Source of the DNA: Candidatus Paceibacter sp. | Lineage (GTDB): Bacteria; Patescibacteriota; Minisyncoccia; UBA6257; JAGOQP01 | Reading direction: 5' to 3' | Assembly: GCA_020724905.1 (NCBI GenBank) | Contig: DYGB01000001.1 | Span: forward strand, 65,866-129,865 | Length of the DNA stretch: 64,000 nt | Shown: positions 9,815 through 47,645 of the stretch, one piece after another | Numbering within the stretch: position 1 is the first letter of the stretch | Layout: every line of letters begins with the position of its first letter | Position numbers and translations under genes: made by a program | The notes under the pieces: generated by a model | Databases searched by the model: none | What the model was told of the DNA's origin: nothing | The model's input: only the letters and a program-made list of their open reading frames with translations

Positions 9815-12800
9815 TTAATTTCCTCCTGGATTGGTCTCACCACCACCAAGATTATATGCCCTGATAGTAACATTACATGAGATATTTCCAAAATCATCAC
9901 TCACCGTACCAACAGCAGTATAGGTACCACTTGTCCTATAATCATGTGTATGTTGAGCAACAGCATATGAAGGCCTTCCATCACCAGGGTTAATTGAATA
10001 ACTCTTTGTTCCGCTCCCCCCCGTAGCATTCAATGTGAACTGAGTCCAGAAAGGCACAATACCTTCTGTTTTTGATGCACTTAACGTACATGCGAGAGGT
10101 TCAATTGGAGCATTAACCGTAACAGGTACTGTAGCAGTAGCTCGTGCGCCTAGAGCATCAGTAACTCTTCCTATCGCAGTATATGAACCCTGTCCATAGG
10201 TATATTCATATGAAGCACTAGAACTGTCCCACCTACCATCTCCATTTGCATCAATCTCATAAGTGTATGGAACAGCTCCATGGTTTGTAACGGTGAGAGT
10301 AAGAGTTGATGTAAGTGGAGCATTTCCTGTAGAAGGAGTTACACTCAAGGAAGCTCCTATTGGATCTGGATCTGGTGGAGAAATATCAGAAACACTAAGT
10401 ACTGAGGAAGCATTCCCCGAAACACCTTCTCGTGATGCAGTCACCGTAAATGGATATGAATTGTTTTCAACACTTGTAGGAACTGAGAAAGTAATTGAGT
10501 GACATGATGCTCCTTCTGGAGCTGTCCCACCATCACAATTACTCCAACTCACATTGGTAAAGGAATGTGTTACTCCAGTAGTAAGTGGTTCTGGAGAAAG
10601 AGAGAAGTGTTCTGGAGAAAGTGCTCCTACACTTCCTGTACGTACTGCTGTGATGGGGAATGAAACAGTTGCAGTAGTTGATCCTCTTTTTATATTCTTT
10701 TGGGCAGGCATAGAAAGAGTGATGCTTCTTGATGGAACAACGACGGTGTCTTTAGTAAGAGTAATCATTGAAGAATCACTGTCGATGACATTTCCCCCAA
10801 TATCATTTACCGCAACACTGAATGTATCTTCAAGTCCATCCTCTGATCCTGGTGCATTTGAAGCAACGCTAACGGTAAGAGTAAATTGTTGTTCATTCTC
10901 ACCAACTCGAGCTCTTGTATTAAGAGCAAATGATCCCGTAACACCAGTAGGAAGGGAATCAACCGAAAGATCTGAAACAGTAAATCCATCTATATCGGCT
11001 GGACGTACAATGTTCACATTATATGTCGTTGAAACACTCCCTGATTTAGGAACTGTAACATTCCTATTATCAGGACTGAGGGTAAGTTCAACACTCTCGC
11101 CTGGTTCTGGATCATCCTCAAGAGACACTCTAAGTGAAGATGTCGTTGACTCTGAAGAACCATCATCTGTTGTTGCTGTAAATGTTATATCCTTTTCTCC
11201 TAGTTGTGTATTAGGACGAACATTAAGCGTTACCGTGAAGATGTCTGAGTTCACATTGTTTGTTGTATGTGTGATGACAGGAGAGCCTATATTTGCATGT
11301 TCAGTAACCACAGTAATATTGTCTTTGGTAAATGCGAAGGAAGGAGTCTTTGCAACGGTTACCTCGTATGAGACTGGAACAGTTCCGGTGGTTGGACGAA
11401 TAACTGTTTCTGATGCAGGAGATGAGGTAACGGTAAAGGTTCCTGGGGATGACACGTTAAGTGAAGATGTTGTCCATTTCGTTTCACTTCCTGTTGAAGC
11501 ATAGAACGTTATATCCTTTTCTCCTAGTTGTGTATTAGGACGAACATTAAGCGTTACCGTGAAGATGTCTGAGTTCACATTGTTTGTTGTATGTGTGATG
11601 ACAGGAGAGCCTATATTTGCATGTTCAGTAACCACAGTAATATTGTCTTTGGTAAATGCGAAGGAAGGAGTCTTTGCAACGGTTACCTCGTATGAGACTG
11701 GAACAGTTCCGGTGGTTGGACGAATAACTGTTTCTGATGCAGGAGATGAGGTAACAGTAAAGGTTCCTGGAGCTGGAGGTGCAGTAATAGTAAGTTTAGC
11801 TTGTCGTGATCGAGATTCAGCACCTGCATTAGCAGTAACAGTAATTAGATGCTCTCCAAGTTGTGCATGTGGGGCAACGGATAGAGTTACCTCAAAGATA
11901 TCAAGAGTAGACCCATTAAGACTATGGGTAACAGATTTCTTTGTAACACCTGTAGGGAGATTGGTAACTGCAATGCTAGAAGGAACAAAGTTAAATGAAG
12001 GATCTGATTTGCTCACAATAGCAGTGTATGAAACATCTTTTGTTCCACTAGTTGGACGTTCTACACTTTTTCCGTCTGGAAGACTAGGAATAAGGGTAAG
12101 GACAAACTGAGGATTAGGAACATCTTCCTCTATAACACTAAAGGATCCTGAATATGTTTGAGAAATACTCTGTCCAGAAGTTGAAGTAGCAGAAACTCCT
12201 ATATCAACGATAAAACCTCCTAACTCAGTTAGCTGTTGTGTATCTACATATACTGCGTATTCATCCTGTGTTGCAGTAGTACTAACACGACTCACCCGTG
12301 CTTCAGGAGATACTGTTGTAGCATCTCCTCCTTTTGCTGGATTTTGTTTTCTTATCTCTAAAATAGTAGCGTTTGTACTTGCTATATTCTGTTTTTCTAA
12401 GATGAGGGTATGTGTACGAACATTACTTTCAAGGCGCACAACTTCTGTATCTACATTAGAAACAGATCCAGAAAGAGAATATGGATCTTCTGCGGGAGCA
12501 GAAACCCCAAGATCAGCAATCGCCTCAGCAATAACTGTTCGAGGAGCATTTGGATGCGCAAACTGAGGAACATCATAAGTAGGAGCGTTAGGAAGTGTAC
12601 GAGTATAAAGATGTAGCTTATACTGACCACCTACCTGAGCTGCATTTGTTGGCGTTGCAGTAAAGAATGCGTTATTCCCATTTGAATACACATTTGAAAA
12701 TGTAATTTCTGTTCCTGTTACATTAACGCCATTTCTATACGCAACAGGTGCCCAATTCCAATTCTGTGTGGTATACACATTTCCACCATCTTGTCTTACA

Positions 12801-14122
12801 ACTTTAAATGTCGTTGCTTGTCCTTTTTGAACAACATCATTTTGCTTTCCATCAAACTGAACACAGTATGGACAGGTGTATGAAACGGAACCTCTTGCAA
12901 CTGCACCATCGTATGATGCTTCAAAATACACAGTATCAGGACTATATCCATCTGGCTGGAAAAAGACTCCAGGATCTGAAGCACTGCTCTCTCCAAGCCC
13001 ACTAAGAAGAGCAAACTTTCCAGTGAAAGGATTTACATGATTTGCGGTAAGTTTAAGAAGACTTAGGTTTTGAATATTGTATGCACCAGCATTTAAGATA
13101 GACAGTGATGGACCACCAGCAGCATGAAGATCTATTGGTTGCCATGTTCCTCCTTCTTGGAATACATCAATTGTGATTGTTTCACTTTTTGAAGCTTCTC
13201 CTCTTCCACTATCATAAATGGCGGTAAAGGTAATAGGATGCTTCCGTATTGGAGCATCTTTATAAATACGAAGTGTAAGATATGTTGTGCCAGAAAAGGT
13301 ACTCCCTAACGCACTTCCCCTGGTAAGAGAAACGTCTACTGGATTTGGAGTAACACGAACAAGATCAGTAGATCGTGTACTATTAGAAACAGCAGCAGTA
13401 TAGTACACATCACGATCACCAATGGCACTATTGTCATTAATATACAGATCAACTCTTACGGTAACATCTTTGTATTGATCGGTGGTAGGAGCTTTTATCT
13501 TAACGGTACGATTATTTGGAGCATATCCAACTTTCAAATTTACTGCCCCAATAGCATCATCAGAAGAATTACTCCACACCCACTCTCGAAGAAGGAAATC
13601 TCCCGCCTTTCCAAGGGTAACGCTTTTACTTTCTGGGTACAATGAGATACGAGTTTCTTGTTCTCCTAGATTCAAAAGTCCTGGTAATCTTGTTTGGAGT
13701 GTATTATTGGTATAGTACTCAACCTCTATAGGAAATGAGAGATATCCACCAAATGATCCTGGTATAATCTGAGCAACAACATCAAGTGATGCCTCAGTTC
13801 CATTTTCAAGAGATCCAGGGCCATCTTTAACAAGAGTGAGGGGCCCCTTGTTCTCAACCCCATTAACAAAGAACTTAACTCCTGAGCTACTCATAAGACC
13901 AGAAATAACAATCTGATCAGCGATTTCTGGGAAGAAGGCATAGACAGAGAGCTCAACATCTCCTCCACTTGAAGGCACAGCAATGTTTGCTCCCGATCCA
14001 GTAATATCCTCACCATTTATAGTTGCAAAAGAGGTTCCATCTGCTTGAGCAAACGATCCCCCAATCATAAACAATGATGCGACGATAGCACAAATTAAAA
14101 ATACCTTAGACAAATATCTCAT
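9815..14122 (-). CDS. Giant secreted cell-surface protein (1435 aa) with Ig-like/PKD repeat domains; adhesin-like
   Basis: N-terminal signal peptide (MRYLSKVFLICAIVASLFMIGGSFAQA). T/S/V-rich beta-strand repeats include two identical 108-aa repeats. Two C-terminal PKD-like domains (...YTYGQGSYTAIGRVTDALGARATATV... and ...HDYRTSGTYTAVGTVSDDFGNISCNVTI...). Confidence 0.8.
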   Translation of the reverse strand: MRYLSKVFLICAIVASLFMIGGSFAQADGTSFATINGEDITGSGANIAVPSSGGDVELSVYAFFPEIADQIVISGLMSSSGVKFFVNGVENKGPLTLVKDGPGSLENGTEASLDVVAQIIPGSFGGYLSFPIEVEYYTNNTLQTRLPGLLNLGEQETRISLYPESKSVTLGKAGDFLLREWVWSNSSDDAIGAVNLKVGYAPNNRTVKIKAPTTDQYKDVTVRVDLYINDNSAIGDRDVYYTAAVSNSTRSTDLVRVTPNPVDVSLTRGSALGSTFSGTTYLTLRIYKDAPIRKHPITFTAIYDSGRGEASKSETITIDVFQEGGTWQPIDLHAAGGPSLSILNAGAYNIQNLSLLKLTANHVNPFTGKFALLSGLGESSASDPGVFFQPDGYSPDTVYFEASYDGAVARGSVSYTCPYCVQFDGKQNDVVQKGQATTFKVVRQDGGNVYTTQNWNWAPVAYRNGVNVTGTEITFSNVYSNGNNAFFTATPTNAAQVGGQYKLHLYTRTLPNAPTYDVPQFAHPNAPRTVIAEAIADLGVSAPAEDPYSLSGSVSNVDTEVVRLESNVRTHTLILEKQNIASTNATILEIRKQNPAKGGDATTVSPEARVSRVSTTATQDEYAVYVDTQQLTELGGFIVDIGVSATSTSGQSISQTYSGSFSVIEEDVPNPQFVLTLIPSLPDGKSVERPTSGTKDVSYTAIVSKSDPSFNFVPSSIAVTNLPTGVTKKSVTHSLNGSTLDIFEVTLSVAPHAQLGEHLITVTANAGAESRSRQAKLTITAPPAPGTFTVTSSPASETVIRPTTGTVPVSYEVTVAKTPSFAFTKDNITVVTEHANIGSPVITHTTNNVNSDIFTVTLNVRPNTQLGEKDITFYASTGSETKWTTSSLNVSSPGTFTVTSSPASETVIRPTTGTVPVSYEVTVAKTPSFAFTKDNITVVTEHANIGSPVITHTTNNVNSDIFTVTLNVRPNTQLGEKDITFTATTDDGSSESTTSSLRVSLEDDPEPGESVELTLSPDNRNVTVPKSGSVSTTYNVNIVRPADIDGFTVSDLSVDSLPTGVTGSFALNTRARVGENEQQFTLTVSVASNAPGSEDGLEDTFSVAVNDIGGNVIDSDSSMITLTKDTVVVPSRSITLSMPAQKNIKRGSTTATVSFPITAVRTGSVGALSPEHFSLSPEPLTTGVTHSFTNVSWSNCDGGTAPEGASCHSITFSVPTSVENNSYPFTVTASREGVSGNASSVLSVSDISPPDPDPIGASLSVTPSTGNAPLTSTLTLTVTNHGAVPYTYEIDANGDGRWDSSSASYEYTYGQGSYTAIGRVTDALGARATATVPVTVNAPIEPLACTLSASKTEGIVPFWTQFTLNATGGSGTKSYSINPGDGRPSYAVAQHTHDYRTSGTYTAVGTVSDDFGNISCNVTIRAYNLGGGETNPGGN
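11184..11772. repeat. Near-perfect tandem duplication, 2 x 324 bp (about 1 mismatch over >260 bp), inside the giant surface-protein gene
   Basis: The string gttatatccttttctcctagttgtgtattaggacgaacattaagcgttaccgtgaagatgtctgagttcacat... recurs at 11184 and 11508. The protein-level repeat GTFTVTSSPASETVIRPTTGTVPVSYEVTVAKTPSFAFTKDNITVVTEHANIGSPVITHTTNNVNSDIFTVTLNVRPNTQLGEKDITF appears twice. Confidence 0.9.
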
Positions 14123-14195: not shown

Positions 14196-14230
14196 TTTAT
14201 AAATAAAGCCCCTAAAACATCTAGGGGCCC
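14196..14230 (-). terminator. Rho-independent terminator downstream of the T9SS-CTD protein gene
   Basis: GCCCCTA-AAACAT-CTAGGGGC hairpin, followed on the minus strand by TTTATTTAT. Confidence 0.55.
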
Positions 14231-14233
14231 TTC

Positions 14234-15310
14234 CTATTTCAAAAAGAGCATCTTTTTTGAGATAGGTTTTTTATGGGGGGAGGTAAGAGTATACATATAG
14301 ACACCGCTAGGAAGATTACTTCCAGAAAAATCAACTTCAAGACGATGATTTCCAGCTCCATAGTATCCATCAGCAACTCTCATTACTCGCTCTCCAAGGA
14401 TAGAATAGATATCAACGCGTATATATCCACTCACTGGAAGAGAAAATGTAATATATGTCGATGGATTAAAAGGATTGGGATAGTTCTGATACAGAATATA
14501 CTCTGAAACGAGATTATCCTCTTCACGATACGAAGTAAGGGAAAAATCATCCAATACCAAAAATGTTGTGTCGTTCCCATGTTTATCGTAGTCAACAGCT
14601 ACAATCTTAGAGAACCACCATCCTAATTCTTGTGTGTAAGATTCAGTTGTTTCCATCGAAGACATCACGTTTATTGTGAGCCCTTCATAAACAAAACCCG
14701 TATCAACATTTTGGTTATACAGAGCCTCAGGCATCTTAATAACAAAGGTGACTGGAGTATGTACCGAATCCCAAGGAGTACTACTTCCAATACCAAGCAT
14801 ATACACACCACGATAATGAGTTTCTTCTCTGTACCAGATATTGAAATCAAACCACGGTGTAGGCGTTGTATCACTTTCAAAAAAATCAAGATTGGCAGAA
14901 ATCCAAAACTCTCGAGGAAGGGTAAATGTTTGAACATTCTTTCTAAAAAATGTATTCATCCAAAAGAGTGAATCTTCTGAAAATGGAATAGGAGTAGACT
15001 CTCCTTTGTGATAAAAAGTCTGACCCTCTTGTCCATATTTTTCAGAAAAATAAGATCCAATCTCACGATAGATACCATCGGATGCAAAGGGAGAAAATTC
15101 CCACCCATTTACTGATCCCACATAGGGAGAATCAGCAAGGGAATAGGTATAATTAGGTACTACTAGATTTGAATCGGCATACAATAGTGTTGTGCCCCTA
15201 TCAATATCAACTACTTTCATAGGACGTTCCACAACAATATACTCCTGAGCTATAGGAGCTCGAATAAACACCGTGAAGAGAAAAACAGAAATAATGATAA
15301 TCCGTTTCAT
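14234..15310 (-). CDS. Secreted protein with a C-terminal T9SS-type (Por secretion tail, type A) sorting domain
   Basis: Signal peptide (MKRIIIISVFLFTVFIRAPIAQE). The last ~85 aa are YQNYPNPFNPSTYITFSLPVSGYIRVDIYSILGERVMRVADGYYGAGNHRLEVDFSGSNLPSGVYMYTLTSPHKKPISKKMLFLK, which matches the Por_Secre_tail consensus closely. Confidence 0.75.
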   Translation of the reverse strand: MKRIIIISVFLFTVFIRAPIAQEYIVVERPMKVVDIDRGTTLLYADSNLVVPNYTYSLADSPYVGSVNGWEFSPFASDGIYREIGSYFSEKYGQEGQTFYHKGESTPIPFSEDSLFWMNTFFRKNVQTFTLPREFWISANLDFFESDTTPTPWFDFNIWYREETHYRGVYMLGIGSSTPWDSVHTPVTFVIKMPEALYNQNVDTGFVYEGLTINVMSSMETTESYTQELGWWFSKIVAVDYDKHGNDTTFLVLDDFSLTSYREEDNLVSEYILYQNYPNPFNPSTYITFSLPVSGYIRVDIYSILGERVMRVADGYYGAGNHRLEVDFSGSNLPSGVYMYTLTSPHKKPISKKMLFLK

Positions 15311-15468
15311 AACAAACCTCCTTTATGTATGTAAATGTTCTTTTTTGTTCTATTTATATTATACAATGAGTACAAAAAAGAGCAATGGTTATATTCTATA
15401 TTGACATAAAAAGAAAACATTGTATTATACACACATCACATTAATAATTTCATATCTGAGGAGGAGTT

Positions 15469-15972
15469 ATGTCGAAAAAATCCAAGCATCTCTTTACCAC
15501 AGCACAACTAGGATCACTTTTTGTATTTATCGCTCCTTTTGCGCTCTGTATACACATATTTGGTAACAGCCCACTTACAAAGGAACGCTTTGTGACAGCT
15601 GTTATCTGTGGAGGGATGTTCCTTACATTAGCGGTTATTATTGCAGTCACAAAACTAGTAAAAAACAAGGAGTTTGGATTTTACTGGTTTTTATCTTCTT
15701 CCCTCTCAATTATGGCAATTGAGCTATCGTTTGTAACATTACTGATAACAGGAAGCTTTGCTTCCACAACAATGATAAACAATCCGCTGACAGTTGCCAT
15801 ACTTGTCATGACAACTATTGTGGTGATTTTCCTTGTTATGATATCCTCTCATGTAATAGACAGTATTGAGGAATACTATGATATTCCAAAAAGAAGTACT
15901 GCATGGAGGAGTATATTCCAAATGATGTATATAACCGGTATAATCATCCTCTCATACTACGCACTCATATAA
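15469..15972 (+). CDS. Hypothetical polytopic membrane protein (167 aa, about 5 TM)
   Basis: Good SD (GAGGAGG) 6 nt upstream of the ATG. Hydrophobic helices throughout. No recognisable domain. Confidence 0.45.
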   Translation: MSKKSKHLFTTAQLGSLFVFIAPFALCIHIFGNSPLTKERFVTAVICGGMFLTLAVIIAVTKLVKNKEFGFYWFLSSSLSIMAIELSFVTLLITGSFASTTMINNPLTVAILVMTTIVVIFLVMISSHVIDSIEEYYDIPKRSTAWRSIFQMMYITGIIILSYYALI

Positions 15973-19274: not shown

Positions 19275-19346
19275 GTTAACTTAGGTAGTATGATTAACAT
19301 ACGTTAACCATTGACGTCTGGTTAACATAGATATATACTACATATA
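19275..19346 (+). promoter_or_regulatory. Sigma70-like promoter (TTGACG-N17-TATACT) embedded in GTTAAC palindromic repeats; putative operator of the HTH-Doc operon
   Basis: -35 at 19311-19316 and -10 at 19334-19339. GTTAAC occurs at 19275, 19303 and 19321, with a TTAAC half-site at 19294. The ATG at 19347 lies about 8 nt after the -10, so the transcript is leaderless or has a very short leader. Confidence 0.5.
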
Positions 19347-19619
19347 ATGGAAAATAACAAAGAGAAGGAATTCCTTTCAACAATAGAAGTAGCTCAATTA
19401 CTTGGCATCAGCAGAATTGCTGTTTTTAAGCGTATCAAAAAAGGAACCCTCCCTGCTCAAAAAATAGGAGAACAATATGTTATTGCAAAAAAAGATCTTA
19501 ACTTAGAAAAACTCCACAGCCCCCTCTCTCAGAAAAGAAAAGATGAATTAAAAAAAAGTATTTCACATATCTTAGAACGATATGAAGAGGCATTTAAACT
19601 TCTTGGGAAAACAGAGTAA
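19347..19619 (+). CDS. Excisionase/MerR-type helix-turn-helix DNA-binding protein; putative antitoxin of the Doc module
   Basis: STIEVAQLLGISRIAVFKRIKKGTLPAQKIG is an excisionase-family HTH. Its stop overlaps the doc start (TAATG). Confidence 0.7.
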   Translation: MENNKEKEFLSTIEVAQLLGISRIAVFKRIKKGTLPAQKIGEQYVIAKKDLNLEKLHSPLSQKRKDELKKSISHILERYEEAFKLLGKTE

Positions 19620-20044
19620 TGAAAAAAGTAGTATACCTCACAATCAAAGAGATTGAATTTTCTGCCTATGAACTTGCAGTACAACTCCTCACAGGGAGCG
19701 AACCGATACCACCGTTCTCAACTCGATATCCTGAAGTTCTCGAGCGATGCGTATATAGCCCACAACAAACATTTGATAAGAAGGATATGTATCCAACGCT
19801 GTATAAAAAAGCGTCAATTCTTTTTTATACACTTATCAAGAATCATCCTTTCAAAAACGGTAATAAACGAATAGCTCTTACATCACTCATTCTTTTTCTA
19901 GAAAAAAATGGATATACTATTACCATAGATTCAGTGCGCATTTACCGCTTCACTCTCTGGATAGCAGAAAGTGATGCAAGTTTAAAAAGTTCAGTACTAG
20001 AGATAATAGAAGAATTTATTAAAAAATACTCAACAAAACTATGA
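19619..20044 (+). CDS. doc: Doc (death-on-curing) toxin, Fic/Doc family kinase
   Basis: Fic/Doc motif HPFKNGNKRIAL (HxFx[D/N]GNKR) at the expected position. At 141 aa it is the typical Doc size. Confidence 0.8.
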   Translation: MKKVVYLTIKEIEFSAYELAVQLLTGSEPIPPFSTRYPEVLERCVYSPQQTFDKKDMYPTLYKKASILFYTLIKNHPFKNGNKRIALTSLILFLEKNGYTITIDSVRIYRFTLWIAESDASLKSSVLEIIEEFIKKYSTKL

Positions 20045-26823: not shown

Positions 26824-27927
26824 TTATCTTTCTAGATATCTTTCAAGCTGAGAAAAGAATAATTCTTTTCTAAATCTTTTCTCTACCTCTATGAGAGCAT
26901 GCTCTGAATACTTCTGGTACATATCCCTATCTTCAAGAAGTGTCCTTATAGCATCAGAAAGGGCACCAGAGTCTTTTGGAGGGACGGTAAGTCCTGTTTT
27001 TCCATCTACACTTACCTCAGGAACTCCCGTAGGAAGAGCTGTGTTAATAACGGGCTTCCCACACGCAAGAGCTTCTATCTGCACAATACCAAATACTTCT
27101 GAGGATTCTGATGAAGGAAGTACAAATATGTCACAGGCATGATAGTAAGGAACAAGATCATCTACAGGATCGATAATATGAACTCGTTCTTCTAGGTTAT
27201 ACTTCCGTATTAATTCAGATAACTCATCTTTAAGGGGTCCATTCCCTATAATCAAAAGTTGCGCATTTACATCTTTCATCGCCTCAATGAGATATGAGAA
27301 TCCTTTGTAGTAAACAAGTCTCCCCACAGAAAGAAGGAGGGGTGTACCATATGTCTTAATAATAGCATTACTCTCCTCTTCTCTTGTAGAATCTTTCCTA
27401 AACGTATCTACATCAATTCCAAAATAAATAACTCTACACTTTTCTACAAACTGAGGAAGTATATATGAGGTCTGTAGTAACGTCTTATTTGAAACAAACA
27501 CATGTGTTGCTTTTTTTAACGTATAGCGAAGAAATGGATCAAATAACTTTCTTAGAAACTTCTGTTTTACAATATCAGAGTGATACCACACCACTACTTC
27601 TTTATCTCTTCCAAAAAGCCAGTATGCAATATAAGTAAGAGGAAAGGGGTGATGGATAAAGATAAGATCAGTTTCCTTTACTAGTTTTCTAAATAGAAAA
27701 AAGAAATCAATTGAAACAGGCATTCCTTTTACTATCCCCATGCTAGAAGCTCGATGGGTGACAACACCATCAACACCATCTTTCTTTCTTTTCCCCTGTG
27801 GCTGACAAACAAGATTAACAAGATCTATATCATCTTTTTTATTAAAATACATAGCTATATCACGAGCTATTGTTTCAATTCCTCCTATCCAAGGATAATA
27901 GAGTTTATTTATTTGAAGAATTTTCAT
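26824..27927 (-). CDS. Glycosyltransferase family 4 (GT-B, Glycos_transf_1)
   Basis: C-terminal signature EVFGIVQIEALACGKPVINTALPTGVPEVSVDGKTGLTV. Confidence 0.85.
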   Translation of the reverse strand: MKILQINKLYYPWIGGIETIARDIAMYFNKKDDIDLVNLVCQPQGKRKKDGVDGVVTHRASSMGIVKGMPVSIDFFFLFRKLVKETDLIFIHHPFPLTYIAYWLFGRDKEVVVWYHSDIVKQKFLRKLFDPFLRYTLKKATHVFVSNKTLLQTSYILPQFVEKCRVIYFGIDVDTFRKDSTREEESNAIIKTYGTPLLLSVGRLVYYKGFSYLIEAMKDVNAQLLIIGNGPLKDELSELIRKYNLEERVHIIDPVDDLVPYYHACDIFVLPSSESSEVFGIVQIEALACGKPVINTALPTGVPEVSVDGKTGLTVPPKDSGALSDAIRTLLEDRDMYQKYSEHALIEVEKRFRKELFFSQLERYLER

Positions 27928-29077
27928 GTATCTTCTTTATTATATCATCTACCGTATTACTCCTTATATCACAAATAATAACATGAGAAACGAGAGGAAT
28001 CATCGATTTAAAACGTACTAGTCCTCTTTTTGAATATGTTGGAAGATAAAAATTCTTGCAATCAATAAGACAATAGGTCTGTTTCTTTAGTATTATAGAA
28101 AGATGGGTGGGAAAAGATTCTATACCAATAACATACTGAGCATCTAGTAGTAGTCGTGCCAACTCTGGTATCGATAACTGCGTAAGAACAGAAACAGTAT
28201 TAATATCATGTGCAATCATGTTGAGCTTCTCCTCTTGATTCTTCACGCCAGCAAGATATACATGAATTCCACTCTTTGAAATTTCTTTTACTAGAGCTCT
28301 CCATTTATCTATACCCCATCCCCGATTGTTCCCAAATGTTGTAGGGGTAATGACAATATATGTGTCAACAATAGTGCCTACTGATTCAGCAATATTGAAA
28401 AAATGTGAACCCAACACTTCCTTTTTTATTCCCAAAGGAAGTAAAAGTTTATGTAAGTTTTTCCACTCTTCATTATATATATCATAGGGAACAGTTATAT
28501 CTGCCAAAAAATTTCTTTGGGACACATCAAAAGAAATTAAGACTTCAGGTTTAATAAGTTTCCATAAAATATTAGAACTTGGTGGTGAATGACGCGTATT
28601 AATAACAACATCATATTCATTATTTCTAAGAGTCTTTAATGTCCCAATATTTTCCTTAAAAATTTCCCACATTGATGTGTGTAGCTTTTTTCTCCCAGAA
28701 AGAAGCGCTCTAAGCAACAGGGAAATATCATAATACGTATATATACTACTCACACCTTTATTACCCTTTAGTACGGGGAGGGAAGATTCTTGAACAACAT
28801 AATCAATTACTGCATCTGGATATTTCTTTTTTATCGCAGTAATAAGAGTTGTTGATAATAGAACATCCCCTAATTGGTCTATCTTTACAATAAGAATCCT
28901 CTTGGGTTCTTGTTTTAAAGATTTCCCCTTCTCGAAAAGAAAAAATATAGAAAAGATAATATCAAGCAACACACTCACTAGATAATAAATGGCCTTCAAA
29001 AAACCCAGAAAACCACCTTTTAAATAAGATACCCAAAGTATAAACCAATTTTTAACTCTATTTTTGAGGTGCTCCAT
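27905..29077 (-). CDS. Glycosyltransferase family 9 (ADP-heptose:LPS heptosyltransferase-like) with an N-terminal TM helix
   Basis: ILIVKIDQLGDVLLSTTLITAIKKKYPDAVIDYVV matches the GT9 N-terminal signature KILVIR.SALGD....P....LK..YP.A.I. A hydrophobic segment precedes it. Confidence 0.65.
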   Translation of the reverse strand: MEHLKNRVKNWFILWVSYLKGGFLGFLKAIYYLVSVLLDIIFSIFFLFEKGKSLKQEPKRILIVKIDQLGDVLLSTTLITAIKKKYPDAVIDYVVQESSLPVLKGNKGVSSIYTYYDISLLLRALLSGRKKLHTSMWEIFKENIGTLKTLRNNEYDVVINTRHSPPSSNILWKLIKPEVLISFDVSQRNFLADITVPYDIYNEEWKNLHKLLLPLGIKKEVLGSHFFNIAESVGTIVDTYIVITPTTFGNNRGWGIDKWRALVKEISKSGIHVYLAGVKNQEEKLNMIAHDINTVSVLTQLSIPELARLLLDAQYVIGIESFPTHLSIILKKQTYCLIDCKNFYLPTYSKRGLVRFKSMIPLVSHVIICDIRSNTVDDIIKKIHENSSNK

Positions 29078-29907
29078 TATTTTACAAGTTTAAGTATTGC
29101 TTTATGTAAAAAAGATCTAGCTTTTGTTGGAATTATAGCTTTTAGAAAAATATAGAAAAGATGAGAACACCTAATAAGTAGAGCTCTTTTGTGCTTTAAA
29201 AATATTTTTCTATTTTTAAAAATAATATGAGCTTTACCTTTTAGTTGCTTAAGATACCTTCCTTTGGTTATTTGATTCTTGTGTTTGTAGTAGATAGTGA
29301 GAGGTTCATCGATATAACAACCCTTGAGATTCCAACCTCTTACACTCCATTCATCGTCCTCTAACCCAATTAAATCTCTATCTTCATCAAAAAGCCCAAC
29401 TGATAAAAATGAATCTCTTCTATACACATGTGAACTTGGCACACTTACCCCTACACCAGCAAGTTTCAAAAAACTAAGTTTATCTGAACTAATACCAGAA
29501 AATCGTTTTATTTCTTTTTCTCCTGTGTCCAAATATTGAATTTCATCTGCTGTATAACAAAAATCAAATTCTTTATGTTTTTCTAAAAGAGAGATTTGTT
29601 TTTCAAGTTTCTCAGGATGCCACCCATCATCAGAATCAAGAAATGCTATATAATCACTCGAAGAATTATTTATGGCCTTATTTCTAGCGGCTCCTATCCC
29701 TTTATTCTCTTGAAAGAAATATTTTATCCTTGAGTCTGACTTTGACAATTCTCCAATGACTTCTTTTGAAGAATCAGTAGATCCATCATCAGTAATTAAG
29801 AGTTCCCAATTTTTATAAGTCTGAGCTTGCACACTTTTAATACACCGGGTAATAAGATCAGACCTATTAAATGTAGGAATTATTATTGATACCAGTTTAT
29901 TTTTCAT
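29077..29907 (-). CDS. Glycosyltransferase family 2
   Basis: VSIIIPTFNRSDLITRCIKSVQAQTYKNWELLITDDGSTD, plus a DSDD (DxD) motif. Confidence 0.8.
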   Translation of the reverse strand: MKNKLVSIIIPTFNRSDLITRCIKSVQAQTYKNWELLITDDGSTDSSKEVIGELSKSDSRIKYFFQENKGIGAARNKAINNSSSDYIAFLDSDDGWHPEKLEKQISLLEKHKEFDFCYTADEIQYLDTGEKEIKRFSGISSDKLSFLKLAGVGVSVPSSHVYRRDSFLSVGLFDEDRDLIGLEDDEWSVRGWNLKGCYIDEPLTIYYKHKNQITKGRYLKQLKGKAHIIFKNRKIFLKHKRALLIRCSHLFYIFLKAIIPTKARSFLHKAILKLVK

Positions 29908-30869
29908 GATGCTTTCTCTAAAGGATTTCTACTAATAAACCTTCTCTTTATAAAAGAAACCATACGATAAATCCTTGATCCAAAAAACGAAAGAAGAAGT
30001 AAGAAAAATATATACAAATTAAACTTTCTTTTTAGGACATCAACATACACACGTCTTCCAATACTCATTTTACCAGCAAGACAATAATAATTCCCAAGAA
30101 TTCTTTTATTAAACAATAATAAAGATTCTTCAAACTCATTATATTTAGCAACGTGTTTTTCTATAAAGTATTCGAGTTCTTTTGCCTTCTTTAAAAAAGA
30201 AAGCTTTTTCCCAGCACTATCAGGCCGAGAATGCCAAAAAAATAGTGCTTCACGAATATAACCAAATGAAAAGCCAGTAAATAAAATTCTAAGATATAAA
30301 TCTCTGTCATCACTCCATTTCATGTTCTCATCGAATCCACCAACTACATTAAAAACATCTCTTTTGATAATTACACTAGAACAAGAATGAATAAAATTTC
30401 TTTTTAAAATATTTTTTTTAAAACAATCCTGCAAAGCCATTGAGTCTTGGTATATTCCAAGGGGTCTGTTGTTAGTAATCACAAAAAAGTTAGAAGCAAC
30501 AAAATCAAATCCCCCCTCCAACAAAAAATTTACCTGTCTTTCAATTTTGTTTGTAACCCATTCATCATCGTGATCTAAGAAAGCAATAAACTCACCCTTA
30601 GACTTTTTAATCCCGATATTTTTAGGATGAGCAGGGCCACCAGAATTTTTTAAAAAACGTATAACTGAGATTCTAGCATCAATTCTTTGAAAATTTTCTA
30701 TAATGCGAACCGTTCCGTCAGTCGATGCGTCATCCACAACAATTAACTCCCAATTTGGATATGTTTGTCTTCTAACAGAAGATATAGTTCGTTCTATAAA
30801 CTCTTCTGCATTATGAGTAGGGATAATAATAGAAACAGAAGGAGTGTTATTTTTTTTTAAGTTAAACAT
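29904..30869 (-). CDS. Glycosyltransferase family 2
   Basis: VSIIIPTHNAEEFIERTISSVRRQTYPNWELIVVDDASTDGT, plus a DHDD motif. Overlaps the downstream GT2 gene by 4 nt. Confidence 0.8.
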   Translation of the reverse strand: MFNLKKNNTPSVSIIIPTHNAEEFIERTISSVRRQTYPNWELIVVDDASTDGTVRIIENFQRIDARISVIRFLKNSGGPAHPKNIGIKKSKGEFIAFLDHDDEWVTNKIERQVNFLLEGGFDFVASNFFVITNNRPLGIYQDSMALQDCFKKNILKRNFIHSCSSVIIKRDVFNVVGGFDENMKWSDDRDLYLRILFTGFSFGYIREALFFWHSRPDSAGKKLSFLKKAKELEYFIEKHVAKYNEFEESLLLFNKRILGNYYCLAGKMSIGRRVYVDVLKRKFNLYIFFLLLLSFFGSRIYRMVSFIKRRFISRNPLEKAS

Positions 30870-30980
30870 AGATAATATTTAAAAAAACATAATTCTCAAC
30901 CCTATGCAGCCTAACCTAGATTGTATAGTAACACACACTTAACTCAAGATATAGATAAATTAGAACGTCTTTATCTTTTC

Positions 30981-32432
30981 TTAAGAATTATAAAATAGAC
31001 CCTTCTTGTTTTTCGTTTTTGCCAAAAAATAAAAATATCTCAAATTAAAAATGCAGAAATACAAACCAAAAATACTAAGATACATAAAAATTTTTGTTCC
31101 AGTAAATAAAAACAATCCTATTGACAAAAAGAGAACGAAAAATCTAAACATTGAGACGCTTTTTTTAAACCTTTTTTCATCAAAGTTCTTTGCTAAAAAT
31201 ATTTCCTTTTTTATACCATATTGGATAGCATCGGGAATCATGCTATACACAACATAAAACAGCGGCGCTATCAGAAAATTTACACTCAGAACGGAAATGG
31301 GGACAGCTATTTTTATAATTCTTAACAGTGAAAAAGTTACTATCTTCACTTTTGAGTTTTCTTTCATCACATTATGCAAGAAAAAAATAAAAAGCGTCAG
31401 GAGAGAAGAGAGGAAGAAGTATAAAGCGATCCCTTTCAATACCGAAACGATACTAACAATGAAAAGGAACATGCTGAATTTTATAAATGCAAACAAAGGC
31501 AATCTGTCGCAAAACTTTTTTGTAGTTCTCAGGGTTGGATTTTTTTCACGCGATATTGCGAAACAATCATTCATTGCATATCCTATTTCATAAATACTGT
31601 AAAATCCGACAATGGCAATAAAAAACAACATGATATTTAAAAAAGAAAAAGGTATTTCTATCATAAAAAAATTCACTGCTTGGGGGAAGATAAACATCGA
31701 TATCAAAAAATCCTTGAGTGACAGAGAAGATCTTCTTCTATATAAATCGTAAGAAAACGGAGAAAAAAAAGAGTGTGTGCGAAACTCCGGGTTAAAGCTT
31801 GTAACAAATGTGTTTATACCAAAACCATTCCACCACTCCTTCTGAAATTTTAAATCCCAGCTATAACTATAGATAACGGCATTTGCTTTACCAAATAATT
31901 TAAGAAGTTCAACATCGCTCTTATTATCAGAAAAGCAAAACGATTTATCAAAATCTATATTCTTTTTCCATTCTTTTTCCGCAAAGATTTCCTGCTTCTT
32001 TCCGAGTAAATCTTTTTTTAAAACACCAGTACATCGATTATTGATAAAATCAAGTTCCGACGATTTCCAATTGTCAAATCCAAGTTTACGAGCAAATACC
32101 TCGGCAGTGCAATCTATTGTTCCAGAAATAAGTAGAGTTTTATATCCTTTCTCCTGTAAAAGAATGGATTTTTCAACTATTTCATTGTTTAAATATTTTT
32201 TTGAATATTCAAAAAAATCCTCCGTTCCTTTTCTGAGATCTTCTCGAGAAAACCCCTCTAGAAGATTCAACGATTTTTTTCGAAAATCAAAAATAAATTT
32301 TAATTCCCGAAAAATAAGGAAAAATGCATATCTTATTTTTGAACGTCTCCACAAAAAATAACCTATAAAATCAAAGGTTGTATTTACATTTACTAAGGTA
32401 TCATCAAGGTCAAAAACAGCGATTTTTCTCAT
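30981..32432 (-). CDS. Fusion protein: N-terminal HAD-superfamily hydrolase plus a C-terminal polytopic membrane domain (divergent UbiA-prenyltransferase-like)
   Basis: HAD motif I at the N-terminus (IAVFDLDDTLVN). The C-terminal ~230 aa have 7-8 TM helices and a UbiA-like block (YAMNDCFAISREKNPTLRTTKK) in which the usual Asp residues are partly replaced. Confidence 0.5.
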   Translation of the reverse strand: MRKIAVFDLDDTLVNVNTTFDFIGYFLWRRSKIRYAFFLIFRELKFIFDFRKKSLNLLEGFSREDLRKGTEDFFEYSKKYLNNEIVEKSILLQEKGYKTLLISGTIDCTAEVFARKLGFDNWKSSELDFINNRCTGVLKKDLLGKKQEIFAEKEWKKNIDFDKSFCFSDNKSDVELLKLFGKANAVIYSYSWDLKFQKEWWNGFGINTFVTSFNPEFRTHSFFSPFSYDLYRRRSSLSLKDFLISMFIFPQAVNFFMIEIPFSFLNIMLFFIAIVGFYSIYEIGYAMNDCFAISREKNPTLRTTKKFCDRLPLFAFIKFSMFLFIVSIVSVLKGIALYFFLSSLLTLFIFFLHNVMKENSKVKIVTFSLLRIIKIAVPISVLSVNFLIAPLFYVVYSMIPDAIQYGIKKEIFLAKNFDEKRFKKSVSMFRFFVLFLSIGLFLFTGTKIFMYLSIFGLYFCIFNLRYFYFLAKTKNKKGLFYNS

Positions 32433-33352
32433 TTTTTAAAAACAAAATTTCCTCCGTATTCTTTAATATTTGATAGATCTCCTTCTATCTCATGGATATC
32501 TCCATTTTCATCAATATAATGTGATTTATATCCCATATTTCGAAGAAGTCCTACGGCCTTCATCGATATGTTTTTTCCCATATTACCACTCCATACCTCA
32601 AGAATTACAATAGGAGAATTGCTTCTTAGAAAAATTTCTCCTCCTTCAAGTACTGATTTCTCCCCACCCTCCACGTCTATTTTCAAAACCGAGGGGGTTA
32701 TGTTTTTAGATTTTATGTACGAATCCAATGTTATCGTATTAATATTATGTGATTCAGAATAATTCCAACTTTCCCATTCTTTCATATTAACTGTATCTTT
32801 ATTTAATGTGCTTATACCAGAGTTTTCTTTTGAAGTATACAGCTTTGATCTTCCTGTAAAACTTGAAATTGCTAAATTCTCAATAAATGTATTTTCTCTT
32901 TTCCCATTTTTGAGAAGAAAATAAAAAACCTTTGTGTTCGGCTCAAAAGAACATACCTTCTTGCAAATTTCTTGAGCGAGATATGTATAAAATCCATAAT
33001 TTGCCCCTATATCAAAAAATACGTCGTTTCCTTGAAGATTCTTAATAAGATACTTTACAAGTCGAAATTCCTCATCGTTTCCACTCGGAAATCCAAAAAC
33101 AAAAATTCTAAATGACTCCCAATCTAATACGGGAATTCTAATAAATTTTCCAAAGACAAGTTTTATATCTCTTTCTCTTCTCCCTAAAACACCAAGTTTA
33201 AAAAGAAGAGAATAAAAATATAGCTTAGGAAAAGAAAAAAGTCTTTTTATTTTCTTTTTAAAACCTGGTCCAGATATTTTTTCTAATCTCTTTTTATTTT
33301 CTTCTGTCTTTTTCAATAAAGACAAAAAGATAATTGTTTTAGGATTTGACAT
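32429..33352 (-). CDS. FkbM-family methyltransferase (Methyltransf_21)
   Basis: VFFDIGANYGFYT SAM-binding motif and a ...KIDVEGGE... block, typical of FkbM. Confidence 0.75.
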   Translation of the reverse strand: MSNPKTIIFLSLLKKTEENKKRLEKISGPGFKKKIKRLFSFPKLYFYSLLFKLGVLGRRERDIKLVFGKFIRIPVLDWESFRIFVFGFPSGNDEEFRLVKYLIKNLQGNDVFFDIGANYGFYTYLAQEICKKVCSFEPNTKVFYFLLKNGKRENTFIENLAISSFTGRSKLYTSKENSGISTLNKDTVNMKEWESWNYSESHNINTITLDSYIKSKNITPSVLKIDVEGGEKSVLEGGEIFLRSNSPIVILEVWSGNMGKNISMKAVGLLRNMGYKSHYIDENGDIHEIEGDLSNIKEYGGNFVFKK

Positions 33353-33848
33353 ATATAAATTATATCTTCTAATCTATTCCAATTTAAGAACATGTTTTTT
33401 TAATGATGGTCCGAGTCTAAAATTACCATTACTTTATCATTGTCACTTATTAGTTCTCTATATCTATAATTTCTTTTGGTGTAGATGAACCGGATAAACA
33501 TTTTATTCTTTTATGTCTTGGTTTATCTTTTCTACCTTTGATATCTATCGTTATTATCTTCCTATTATTTACTAAATCACATATAAAAGCATGGGGCACT
33601 TCTTTCGTGTATAGTCCCAAGTTTAGTCATTATATATTGTATGTGGTCTTATTTCAAAAATTTGTATACGTCCACCACTTTTTTGAGACTCCTTCCTGTA
33701 TTGAGAGGTGTCTGTATCATACACTGAAAGGGAGAGAGAAGACCTTTTGTTCCTTTCCATGTATTGAAACACATCATATATGAGCCCTACAAGACAGCCT
33801 CATGTATGTGAACTTATGTAATATTAAATACAAATTTAACAAAAAACC

Positions 33849-34637
33849 TCATAAATATATAACTCCTATACCCGCCCATCCTTGGCTATAATCATGTACT
33901 AATTCAACATTTCTATGTTCACCTTTAATTTCATCCCAGAAAGAATTAACTTCACAACCAGAATCTTTGGAATGAACACAAATATCATGAAATGCAATAA
34001 TTCCACCATTTTTTACAAGTCCGCTATATAGCTGGAAATCTTTCTTCACTCCTTCATAAGAATGATCCCCGTCTATGAAGAGAAAATCAATCTTTCTTTC
34101 TTTTAAAATGTCTTTAATCTGGTTTATCATACTACTAGAATGAGAATCCCCCCTTAAAAGAAAGAGACTCTGCTTCTTCTTTGTAAAAGATCTAAAAAAG
34201 GGAGATTTCACTTCTGAGTACCCTCCCCCAAAATCACCGCCTGGAAGATCTATACTTATCAAAGTTGCTTCATCTAAGCCAAGTTTAGAAAAACAAAAAA
34301 GCGTTCCTCCTCTAGCAGTTCCGATCTCAACTACCACCTTTGGTTTTTGTTCTTTATAGCGCACGAGTAAATCTAAAAATTCTGAGTCAACCTGCATAGG
34401 AGCAAAACTACTAAAAAAAGATTCTTTTATAAAATTAAATACATCAACCTCATTGGTGGAATTAAAGTTTGCTATTTTCCTTACTACATATCTCTTAAAC
34501 AAAAACAAATACAAATTAATAAGAAATATTTTTATTCTAAAAAACATTGCCTTGCCTATACGAAAAAGTAGATAAAAAAATCCTTCGCTTTCTAAAATTT
34601 TCTTAATTTTTCCTTTATTGTTTTTTAACAAATCCAT
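33849..34637 (-). CDS. Class I SAM-dependent methyltransferase (Methyltransf_24 / CmcI-TylF-like O-methyltransferase)
   Basis: VVEIGTARGGTLFCFSKLG...FIDGDHSYEGVKKDFQLY...GGIIAFHDI is the hallmark arrangement of this family. Confidence 0.75.
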   Translation of the reverse strand: MDLLKNNKGKIKKILESEGFFYLLFRIGKAMFFRIKIFLINLYLFLFKRYVVRKIANFNSTNEVDVFNFIKESFFSSFAPMQVDSEFLDLLVRYKEQKPKVVVEIGTARGGTLFCFSKLGLDEATLISIDLPGGDFGGGYSEVKSPFFRSFTKKKQSLFLLRGDSHSSSMINQIKDILKERKIDFLFIDGDHSYEGVKKDFQLYSGLVKNGGIIAFHDICVHSKDSGCEVNSFWDEIKGEHRNVELVHDYSQGWAGIGVIYL

Positions 34638-34713
34638 AATGGTTTCTTTAATAATCTAGTTAAGGTGATAAAAAATAAAACTACTTTCATATACAATTTA
34701 CTTATATATTATT

Positions 34714-45646: not shown

Positions 45647-45871
45647 ATGGATATTACATCGATTCTCTCTATCGCACAGCTTGTTATTGCGGTTCTCCTC
45701 ATCATCCTTGTTCTTCTTCAAGAACGTGGAGGAGGGGTAGGAGCAGCATTTGGAGGTGGTGATAGTGGATTCCAGACACAACGACGTGGTATGGAAAAGT
45801 GGACCTACAGTGCAACTATTGCAGGACTCATACTGTTTGCAGCGCTTTCGCTTGCATTGCTCCTGCTCTAA
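45647..45871 (+). CDS. secG: Preprotein translocase subunit SecG
   Basis: 74 aa with 2 TM helices around the conserved LLQERGGGVGAAFGGGDSGF glycine-rich loop. Confidence 0.8.
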   Translation: MDITSILSIAQLVIAVLLIILVLLQERGGGVGAAFGGGDSGFQTQRRGMEKWTYSATIAGLILFAALSLALLLL

Positions 45872-45879
45872 GCTTAATC

Positions 45880-47559
45880 ATGAAAAAAACGTTCTCCTAC
45901 ATTCAGAAGATGTTCTCTTCTTTTTCACGAAAAGAGATTATTCTCTTCCTTACCGCTGCCATCTTTTTTGTGGCATCAAGTGTGCTTCTTACCGTTGCGC
46001 TTGTTGATGAATACACAATACAAACCCCTGGAAGTGGTGGAGAGCTCAAAGAAGGAGTTGTAGGGCAGATTAGCCTGATTAACCCTATCCTTGCTCAAGA
46101 CAATACTCCTGATGGAGATATTACCGCTCTCGTATTTGCCAACATCCCTACCATTGCAGAAAGCATCAAATACTCAGATGACTTTAAAACATGGAATGTG
46201 AGAATAAAAGAAGGTGCACAGTGGCACAATGGAACAGCTATTACCAGTGATGATATTATCTTTACCATCCAGACGGTAAAAAATCCTCAAACATCATCCC
46301 CCCTCTTTGATGTATGGAAGAATATATCAGTTCAACGTATTAGTGAACGAGAGGTTGAATTTCAACTCCTTGATTCATACGCACTCTTTGAAAACATTCT
46401 TCGAGAACTACGACCAGTACCAAAACAGTTATTCGCTGATATTGCTCCTGCAAACATAAAACTCTCAGTGTATAACCTACGTCCTTTGGGAAGTGGACCT
46501 TATACATACAAAGAACTCACGAAGCGTGATGATGGCTTTATCAGCTCATATACACTCAGTGCAGCAGATACCTTCACCTATACAGAAAACTCTCCTCTTA
46601 TTAAAACCCTCACCTTTGTATTCTTCGAAAATGATTCACAACGTATCAATGCATTTAACAGTGGAGTAATTACCTCATTGGGAACATTTGATCCAGAGGT
46701 AATAGAAAGCATCTCTATTAAAAAGAATGTCTATGATATTGCAACACGACGATACTATGCACTCTTTTTCAATACCACCGCCTATGGCACACAGATATCA
46801 CAATCATTACGAGAAAACCTTATTCACAGTATAGACTCACAAGCTATTATCACAGACGTCTTTAACTCACATGCTGATTCTATCAGAGGACCACTTGATA
46901 GTATCATCCCTCCAAAAGAACAGAGTCCTTCTATTACTATCAATTTTGAAGAAAGTCTCTCTGAAGCAGGGTGGGAGAAAAGAGATGATACCTGGGGTCG
47001 TATGAATGGAGAAACCTGGGAAGAATTCTCTCCTACTATTACCGTTCCTGATACCCCACTTCTTACACGAACAGCACATCTTATCGCCTCACAATGGAAA
47101 CAGTATGGTATTGCTGCTCGTGTTGCTGTTGTCGACCCTCAGATTCTCTCAGATGATATCCTTCCTTCACGAAACTATGAAGTCCTCCTCTTTGGGAATA
47201 TTTTACTTAAAAACCCTGATCTATCATCATTCTGGCATTCAAATGAAATATTCCATCCAGGACAAAACTTCTCACTCCTCAAAGACAATACCCTCGATAC
47301 CCTTCTTGCTGAATTAAAACGATCCTATCCAGACACACAGGAATACACTGATCTTCTGAGTGGTATTAATGAGCAGATTCAATCTCATGCACCAGCTGCA
47401 TTCCTTCTTTCTCCTTACTATCTCTACATCACCTCTCCACAAATCCCTACCCCACTCTTCCCTCAAAAAATATCATTCACCCATGATCGATTTGAATACA
47501 TCACCTCATGGTATGTAAAAACAACACGAACCTTTAGTTCATCAAAAGATCTCCACTAG
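45880..47559 (+). CDS. Solute-binding protein family 5 (peptide/oligopeptide ABC-type substrate-binding protein), membrane-anchored; orphan
   Basis: Start chosen at MKKTFSY (45880), directly after secG. N-terminal TM anchor. The SBP_bac_5 region ...PILAQDNTPDGDITALVFANIPTIAES...DFKTWNVRIKEGAQWHNGTAITSDDIIFT... matches the family pattern. No permease or ATPase gene is adjacent. Confidence 0.7.
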   Translation: MKKTFSYIQKMFSSFSRKEIILFLTAAIFFVASSVLLTVALVDEYTIQTPGSGGELKEGVVGQISLINPILAQDNTPDGDITALVFANIPTIAESIKYSDDFKTWNVRIKEGAQWHNGTAITSDDIIFTIQTVKNPQTSSPLFDVWKNISVQRISEREVEFQLLDSYALFENILRELRPVPKQLFADIAPANIKLSVYNLRPLGSGPYTYKELTKRDDGFISSYTLSAADTFTYTENSPLIKTLTFVFFENDSQRINAFNSGVITSLGTFDPEVIESISIKKNVYDIATRRYYALFFNTTAYGTQISQSLRENLIHSIDSQAIITDVFNSHADSIRGPLDSIIPPKEQSPSITINFEESLSEAGWEKRDDTWGRMNGETWEEFSPTITVPDTPLLTRTAHLIASQWKQYGIAARVAVVDPQILSDDILPSRNYEVLLFGNILLKNPDLSSFWHSNEIFHPGQNFSLLKDNTLDTLLAELKRSYPDTQEYTDLLSGINEQIQSHAPAAFLLSPYYLYITSPQIPTPLFPQKISFTHDRFEYITSWYVKTTRTFSSSKDLH

Positions 47560-47645
47560 CTCGGGTGGTGAAACTGGTAGACACGCAGCGTTCAGAGCGC
47601 TGTAGGAATTATCCTGTGGGAGTTCAAATCTCCCCCCGAGCACAC
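47560..47645 (+). tRNA. tRNA-Leu (anticodon CAG), type II with a long variable arm
   Basis: Cloverleaf folded by hand. Acceptor GCTCGGG/CCCGAGC. D-arm GTG-AAACTGGTAGA-CAC. Anticodon stem CAGCG/CGCTG with loop TTCAGAG. Variable arm TAGGAATTATCCTGTG. T-arm GGGAG-TTCAAAT-CTCCC. Discriminator A. CCA is not encoded. Confidence 0.85.

Follow-up and report, generated by a model that had tools for sequence, protein, structure and literature searches.

A type IX secretion-type C-terminal domain maintained on a putatively secreted orphan protein of a Paceibacteria lineage

What is a type IX secretion system (T9SS) sorting domain doing on a protein of a bacterium in which no such system is in view? The question is raised by a 358-aa open reading frame (ORF), which runs from an ATG start to a TAG stop at positions 14234-15310 on the minus strand of a 64,000-nucleotide stretch of contig DYGB01000001.1 (Candidatus Paceibacter sp.); this whole stretch is called the window below, and the ORF the target. 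The T9SS has been reported only from Bacteroidota and, possibly, from other phyla of the Fibrobacteres-Chlorobi-Bacteroidetes (FCB) group (PMC5837995, PMC10202324), and proteins carrying its C-terminal domain (CTD) are said in a review to be restricted to Bacteroidota and, a few cases apart, to occur along with the core genes of the T9SS (PMC10202324). The window falls within the Candidate Phyla Radiation (CPR), whose groundwater cells, when imaged by cryogenic transmission electron microscopy, are without an outer membrane and attached to Gram-negative hosts (PMC7906910). A literature search found no paper tying CPR or Patescibacteria to T9SS domains, and the NCBI pipeline has automatically labelled at least one partial protein, on a 1.3-kb contig of a Paceibacteria bin, as “T9SS type A sorting domain-containing protein”. 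The explanation favoured here, to which a probability of roughly 0.7 is given, is that the target is a CPR protein exported by the Sec route, and that its CTD came from T9SS bearers, became fixed in the clade, was exchanged with other bacteria and is kept as an immunoglobulin (Ig)-like binding or anchoring module.

When considered from the point of view of its architecture, the target can be divided into three parts:

15248..15310, minus strand: putative Sec/signal peptidase I-type signal peptide, residues 1-21, from inspection and the family alignment
14507..15247, minus strand: orphan N-terminal domain (N-domain), residues 22-268, predicted to be all-beta, its core (N-core) running from DSPYVGSVNGW to VLDDF
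14237..14506, minus strand: type-A T9SS CTD, residues 269-358, with a QNYPNPFNPST motif, GVYMY (motif D) and the tail KKMLFLK (motif E lysines)

The initial annotation, made from the sequence without database searches, had taken the last part for a type-A sorting domain, and curated hidden Markov models (HMMs) bear this out: residues 277-353 match PF18962 (Por_Secre_tail) with 31.0 bits and an E-value of 3.1e-7 (gathering cut-off 27), and residues 277-354 match TIGR04183 with 32.2 bits and an E-value of 7.9e-8 (cut-off 23). Our own HMM, built from the C-termini of 114 database matches, gives the target a score of 114 bits (E 6e-35) and detects no further CTD in the window, whichever of the six frames is read. 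An AlphaFold2 (AF2) model of residues 262-358, based on a 45-sequence CTD alignment, is confident, with a predicted local distance difference test score (pLDDT) of 86.6, and has seven beta-strands. A Foldseek search with this model returned generic Ig-like sandwiches, all at E > 1e-3, including the T9SS substrate CTD chains of two solved translocon complexes, 8gl6_D (template modelling score, TM, 0.62) and 8gl8_D (TM 0.56). Five residues, G336, Y338, Y340, K352 and K353, are invariant in the family and nearly so across the 45 CTDs. They fall in motif D (G-x-Y) and among the motif E lysines within the last 13 residues, as these motifs are defined in PMC10202324, which lists the glycine and tyrosines of motif D, together with the lysines of motif E, as some of the features that determine recognition by the T9SS. 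With scores above the curated cut-offs, a place at the extreme C-terminus behind a putative Sec signal, a seven-strand Ig-like fold and both motifs, the domain is a genuine type-A T9SS CTD by sequence, position, fold and motifs.

It is important to separate this domain from the Ig-like domain of FlgD (PF13860), a similar small beta-sandwich that occurs in organisms without a T9SS. One such structure, 3osv, is among the Foldseek matches, and PF13860 co-matches many CTD proteins in the database. The target, however, has no PF13860 match at E<=1, and its motifs are those of T9SS CTDs. The closer likeness is to the type-A cargo of the Bacteroidota T9SS, such as RgpB and PorZ of Porphyromonas gingivalis or RemA of Flavobacterium johnsoniae, with which the target shares the succession of Sec signal, passenger and ~80-90-aa CTD, the PF18962 and TIGR04183 matches, the modelled seven-strand Ig-like sandwich and the terminal lysines (PMC10202324).

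The genome that carries this domain is a member of the Parcubacteria/Paceibacteria within the CPR, an assignment that rests on the relatives of its CTP synthase (PyrG) and on its reduced gene content. The 80 best PyrG relatives, at 54-68% identity, stem almost entirely from genomes that bear the name of a Patescibacteria lineage (Wolfebacteria, Harrisonbacteria, Paceibacterota, Saccharibacteria and others) or have no label below “bacterium”, and three bear other automatic labels. The earlier impression of a reduced, possibly monoderm lineage was borne out, the relatives being overwhelmingly Patescibacteria. The window encodes a typical CPR repertoire, including YceG, FtsW/RodA, TsaD, RNase Y, iPGM, a ClpB-like ATPase, TrxR, CorA, NusA, ClpP, RNase J, MetRS, a Mur ligase, RuvA and a polysaccharide cluster. 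The remark of the initial annotation that no T9SS machinery occurs here also held, as neither T9SS nor outer-membrane biogenesis genes were found among the window proteins or those of the ~9 kb past one end. For the YceG protein at the start of the window, no record with this start codon was found. In contrast to the Bacteroidota cargo, the target therefore sits in a CPR host with no T9SS in view and, by lineage knowledge, with no outer membrane; it is one CTD protein where Bacteroidota have dozens, and its passenger domain is an orphan. Translocation by SprA, shuttling by PorV and cleavage by PorU with attachment to anionic lipopolysaccharide (A-LPS) cannot run in the producing CPR cell. What is new is that a known domain is kept where its known mechanism cannot run, and on an orphan passenger that has been exchanged between two phyla.

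The target is a resident gene, inherited vertically at a fixed CPR locus, and its acquisition is old, because the same locus is found on four diverged contigs, the composition of the gene is host-like and its CTD is under purifying selection. The protein recurs exactly on a 145-kb contig of the Joint Genome Institute (JGI) and in an independent Logan assembly, with DNA 99.9-100% identical to the window, and it is also recorded from a 181-kb NCBI contig. Three homologues occupy the same locus in more distant CPR genomes, namely P0002 (contig L086), P0004 (L003) and P0005 (L085), which are 77, 57-59 and 50% identical to the target, respectively. The order of the locus is a thioredoxin-like gene, glutaredoxin, thioredoxin reductase, a small hydrophobic protein on the opposite strand, the target and a giant secreted protein. 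The flanking thioredoxin reductases of the window, L086 and L003 are mutually 83-86% identical, and each is 74-75% identical to that of L085. The GC content of the target (37.4%) and its GC at third codon positions (0.29) lie inside the range of the window genes. A recent transfer, judged by composition, was rejected, the target being ameliorated to the window composition.

The ratio of nonsynonymous to synonymous divergence (dN/dS, by the Nei-Gojobori method) is 0.11 in the CTD and 0.11 in the N-core between the window and L086, where synonymous divergence (dS) is ~1.0-1.3 (1.0 in the CTD). Deeper CPR pairs give 0.24-0.29 for the CTD, and the N-core ranges from 0.11 to 0.29 overall. The CTD has long been held by purifying selection in a CPR clade without a visible T9SS.

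The passenger of this domain is found in very few places. The N-terminal ~270 aa, in which the initial annotation had recognised no domain, indeed match no Pfam or NCBIfam domain, and a sequence comparison with the PDB gave no relative. When a profile of this N-domain was compared with 1.84 billion representative proteins, it retrieved only its own family and one weak repetitive match (P0125), and no N-domain homologue was found in 185,579 species-representative genomes, the JGI metagenome contig collection, viral contigs or plasmids. Among 5.8 billion protein clusters there are only five other full-length homologue clusters (P0002-P0006, 77-46% identity), the family as found in these two collections comprising six clusters and fragments. 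Three further candidates for N-terminal relatives, P0018, P0053 and P0065, with 36-73% query coverage, were rejected, since their true similarity is confined to the CTD; the Foldseek matches of a full-length model were dismissed as meaningless (TM < 0.3).

Two of the carriers lie outside the CPR. The first is P0121, a member of the P0003 cluster, which is 71% identical to the target over the full length and has the same three-part architecture. The P0121/P0003 loci are L087, L088, L091 and L093, of which L087 and L088 are overlapping independent contigs and L093 is a third contig repeating the same context. Three neighbours of P0121 also carry a CTD, namely an S8 peptidase, an RCC1-repeat protein and a 363-aa protein, so that four CTDs lie in ~13 kb at L087/L088, as compared with one in the 64-kb window and one each in L003, L085 and L086. 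The other neighbours comprise an adjacent M1 peptidase, a PAP2 protein and a metallophosphoesterase, along with a fragment similar to the C-terminal end of glycogen synthase. The named sequences closest to the M1 peptidase come from Ignavibacteria, Ignavibacterium, Melioribacter and Rosettibacter, at 44-47% identity. Judged by these genes, the genome of P0121 is CTD-rich, of T9SS type and Ignavibacteria-like, and P0121 is presumably genuine T9SS cargo there. A transposase that reads as IS110-like lies directly 3' of P0003 (L091 1482-2837, minus strand).

The second carrier, P0006, is encoded on L084, a taxonomically unassigned, lipoprotein-rich contig of 31% GC without synteny to the CPR locus. 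The L084 proteins gave no informative Pfam match, and a LemA-like neighbour has just two relatives. A related contig holds only an IS3-family transposase (HTH_Tnp_1 and rve matches; L089 1606-2780) and lipoproteins.

The relationships among these carriers differ from one part of the protein to another. In a sliding-window comparison, the N-cores of the CPR protein P0004 and of P0006 are 87-97% identical in protein and 86-90% in DNA, whereas their signal peptides and CTDs are unrelated (CTDs 36% identical, DNA ~50%), the signal peptide and CTD of P0004 matching those of the window and P0002 at 70-84% instead. The flanking housekeeping genes place the window, L086 and L003 at equal distances from one another, but the target is 77% identical between window and L086 and only 57-59% between window and L003. 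Since these distances contradict the flanking genes, one lineage or more must have had its N-core replaced. With generic CTDs of Ignavibacteria/Melioribacteraceae type, the CTD of P0006 shares 57-60% identity, as against 36-44% with the other CTDs of the family. The fragment P0124, which carries a CPR-type CTD, is 78% identical to P0004 and 72% to P0006 in its N-part, and these values give the topology (P0124,(P0004,P0006)), which favours a transfer in which the L084 organism received its N-core from a gene of the CPR.

A different breakpoint is seen in P0121. In the N-core and the first 60 CTD residues it groups beside the window and P0002, and its C-terminal ~24 residues, SGVYFYTLSSGGFVETKKMMLIR, are very nearly those with which the CTD of the neighbouring S8 peptidase ends, SGVYFYTLSSGSFVETKKMMLIK (L088 5200-5441 and 6570-6647; L087 1860-1934). 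The pattern suggests that the tail recognised by the T9SS was brought to the local type by gene conversion, and it sets P0121, placed among other CTD proteins and ending in an S8-type tail, apart from the target with its CPR-type tail. The sequence comparisons thus give good support to two or more exchanges between the CPR clade and genomes outside the CPR. Gene flow was repeated and may also have run outward from the CPR clade, and the CTD itself must ultimately have come from a T9SS-bearing lineage.

Taken together, these observations suggest a history in which the CTD, and probably the whole gene, arose in T9SS-bearing bacteria of Bacteroidota/Ignavibacteria type. The gene would then have become fixed at one locus in the ancestor of the CPR clade, and gene segments have since been swapped at least twice between this clade and genomes that are either Ignavibacteria-like or unassigned. 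To cross the single membrane of the CPR cell, the protein would need no more than its signal peptide and Sec. Because a signal peptide suffices where there is one membrane, the CTD would not act there as an outer-membrane translocation signal; since its conservation equals that of the remainder of the protein, it must have some other role, probably that of an Ig-like binding or anchoring module in a surface or host-interaction protein. The initial annotation had left three options, of which horizontal acquisition and use of the CTD by another route are supported jointly and a T9SS of the lineage's own is not. Acquisition is supported because the family is common only to the CPR clade, the Ignavibacteria-like genome and L084, and because of the mosaic breakpoints; use by another route, because purifying selection acts on the CTD in a CPR clade where no T9SS is in view. 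Selection on the CTD where the canonical pathway cannot operate would point to a use of such domains beyond outer-membrane translocation. Annotators should note that, in CPR genomes, the label “T9SS type A sorting domain-containing protein” is not necessarily a sign of a contaminated bin.

Genes common to CPR episymbionts and their hosts are known, for instance between Saccharibacteria and Actinobacteria. The target resembles these cases in being a surface or secreted gene shared, with repeated exchange, by a CPR lineage and a distant free-living bacterium. It differs in that the gene bears the secretion tag of the partner phylum, and in that the Ignavibacteria-like partner is only a putative host. 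To our knowledge, the hosts of almost all Parcubacteria are unknown, and a family common only to the CPR clade, Ignavibacteria-like bacteria and the unassigned L084, with its breakpoints, leads to a concrete host hypothesis.

In this hypothesis, the secreted CPR protein would dock onto the T9SS of an Ignavibacteria-like host, its CTD binding the PorV/PorU/PorZ/PorQ complex at the host surface; in a variant, the host sortase PorU might ligate the protein to host A-LPS and so tether epibiont material to the host. The conservation of the CTD in the CPR clade would be accounted for, including that of the motif D and E residues needed for T9SS recognition, and PorU and PorV do act at the cell surface (PMC10202324). 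That segments were exchanged repeatedly with CTD-rich genomes of Ignavibacteria-like type implies that the partners were physically close. Attachment to Gram-negative hosts has been seen for CPR cells, and one study found Ignavibacteria together with a CPR lineage (PMC7906910). However, the CPR and Ignavibacteria-like carriers show no overlap of samples among the records retrieved, all of which come from different samples. Both non-CPR carriers moreover have a CTD or tail of local type, so the CPR-type tail could be a poor T9SS ligand, and engagement of PorV/PorU by CTD proteins supplied from outside is not an established behaviour. Docking is therefore unlikely, even if it fares best among the alternatives. 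It is likewise with little confidence that we raise the bolder idea of a host-type T9SS CTD serving a Parcubacteria epibiont as a grappling module, the exchange of the gene family marking Ignavibacteria-like bacteria as the hosts of this CPR clade.

The CTD could also be a relic of transfer without any role, kept because the loss of a folded terminal domain would destabilise the protein. Its dN/dS (0.11-0.29) does not fall below the N-core range (0.11-0.29), which indicates no special constraint, and the Ig-like sandwich that it forms is a generic fold. Dispensable sequence, however, is usually lost from reduced CPR genomes; the CTD is intact in at least four CPR lineages at saturated synonymous divergence, and surface-exposed signal residues such as the terminal lysines are invariant. 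A vestigial tag is, for these reasons, quite improbable.

Much less credible still is that the genome encodes a T9SS and an outer membrane of its own elsewhere, the protein being ordinary cargo. The CTD looks fully competent and the scan covers ~73 kb of the genome, but neither the window nor its flank holds a T9SS or outer-membrane biogenesis gene, the single CTD of the window stands against four in ~13 kb at the Ignavibacteria-like locus, the CPR cells imaged so far are without an outer membrane (PMC7906910), and reports of the system are confined to Bacteroidota and, possibly, further phyla of the FCB group (PMC10202324, PMC5837995). Finally, an Ignavibacteria gene misjoined into a CPR contig by assembly or binning, as the close homologue in an Ignavibacteria-like genome might suggest, can be set aside as having a negligible chance, since independent JGI and Logan assemblies have the same junctions, three more diverged CPR contigs hold the orthologue at the same locus, and the composition of the gene matches the host genome.

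Several points nevertheless weigh against retention of the CTD as a binding or anchoring module of a Sec-exported CPR protein. The N-terminus, MKRIIIISVFLFTVFIRAPIA followed by QE after the cleavage site, is of signal-peptidase-I type by inspection, that is, as judged by eye. The scan for T9SS genes covers ~73 kb, and their absence from the whole genome would follow from knowledge of the lineage. Purifying selection on the CTD could reflect only a need of folding or stability. Every evolutionary statement rests on few sequences, the family having six clusters, and each transfer may have run either way, since the N-domain tree has few sequences and is without an outgroup. The full-length AF2 model, from a six-sequence alignment, is all-beta with a pLDDT of 53, and is thus a poor model of the N-domain.

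The remaining features of the gene and its immediate neighbours are as follows:

15469..15972, plus strand: 167-aa largely hydrophobic protein, reading as an integral membrane protein, divergent from and 5' of the target
15424..15453, minus strand: candidate promoter ATGAAA-18-TATAAT (10/12), a consensus match only, ~115 nt 5' of the start codon
15317..15324, minus strand: strong Shine-Dalgarno sequence AAAGGAGG, read from the sequence, 6 nt before the ATG
14199..14228, minus strand: intrinsic terminator, stem GCCCCTA, loop GATGTTT, stem TAGGGGC, then TTTATTTAT, 5 nt past the stop; the hairpin was also found on the plus strand
9815..14122, minus strand: giant 1435-aa secreted repeat protein with a C-terminal PKD-like domain (PKD_4, 26.3 bits), 3' of the target

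The candidate promoter is weak evidence, as promoter-like sites around 15424..15453 are no more frequent than in shuffled sequence. The target looks monocistronic, because it has its own intrinsic terminator 5 nt past the stop. Its signal peptide consists of MKR, the hydrophobic core IIIISVFLFTVFI and RAPIA, with predicted cleavage before Q, and is without a lipobox cysteine. This glutamine, Q22 (codon 15245-15247), at +1 of the predicted cleavage site, is invariant in 6/6 family members and fits the “Bacteroidetes Q-rule” (PMC5837995), a weak signal given that two other secreted window proteins also read A before and Q after the cut.

The two neighbours are conserved with the target by position, and any link to its function is putative. 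The giant protein follows the target in the window, L003 and L085, with 44-59% identity over the first 400 aa, and the 167-aa hydrophobic protein is present at all four CPR loci at 28-70% identity, with no Pfam match in the JGI record. At ~11446-11770 the giant protein has a ~108-aa unit in two nearly identical copies; the same contig as assembled by the JGI is shorter by 324 nt (one unit), giving 1327 aa, a difference that is due either to real variation in copy number or to a collapsed assembly. This ~108-aa repeat is absent from the output of Tandem Repeats Finder.

Elsewhere in the window, a cluster resembling a type IV secretion system (T4SS) begins at 60456 and runs to 64000 and past the window end (L094 1-9960). 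It includes a T4SS_pilin (PF18895) protein at 61641-62717 and, beyond the window end, TrbL_3, PrgI-like, TraC-like and VirB4/TraG-like ATPase genes. Clusters of this kind occur widely among CPR genomes, in keeping with the assignment of the window. The region 27900-34640 has a GC content of 30-32%, compared with ~39-40% in most of the window, and encodes GT2 and GT9 glycosyltransferases, FkbM/CmcI-type methyltransferases and a protein in which a HAD-family hydrolase domain is joined to a long, hydrophobic C-terminal part; the island resembles a cluster for surface polysaccharide, possibly of foreign origin. A Fic-domain protein and an HTH_17 protein at 19300-20000 (L001 5267-5964), between CorA and a sugar transferase, are missing at the syntenic L003, and this pair looks like a small accessory insertion, possibly of toxin-antitoxin type. 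An Rfam search gave no RNA family in the window. The sole tRNA in the 64 kb, a tRNA-Leu(CAG) at 47559-47643, begins at the last base of the stop codon of an SBP_bac_5 ORF (45799-47559).

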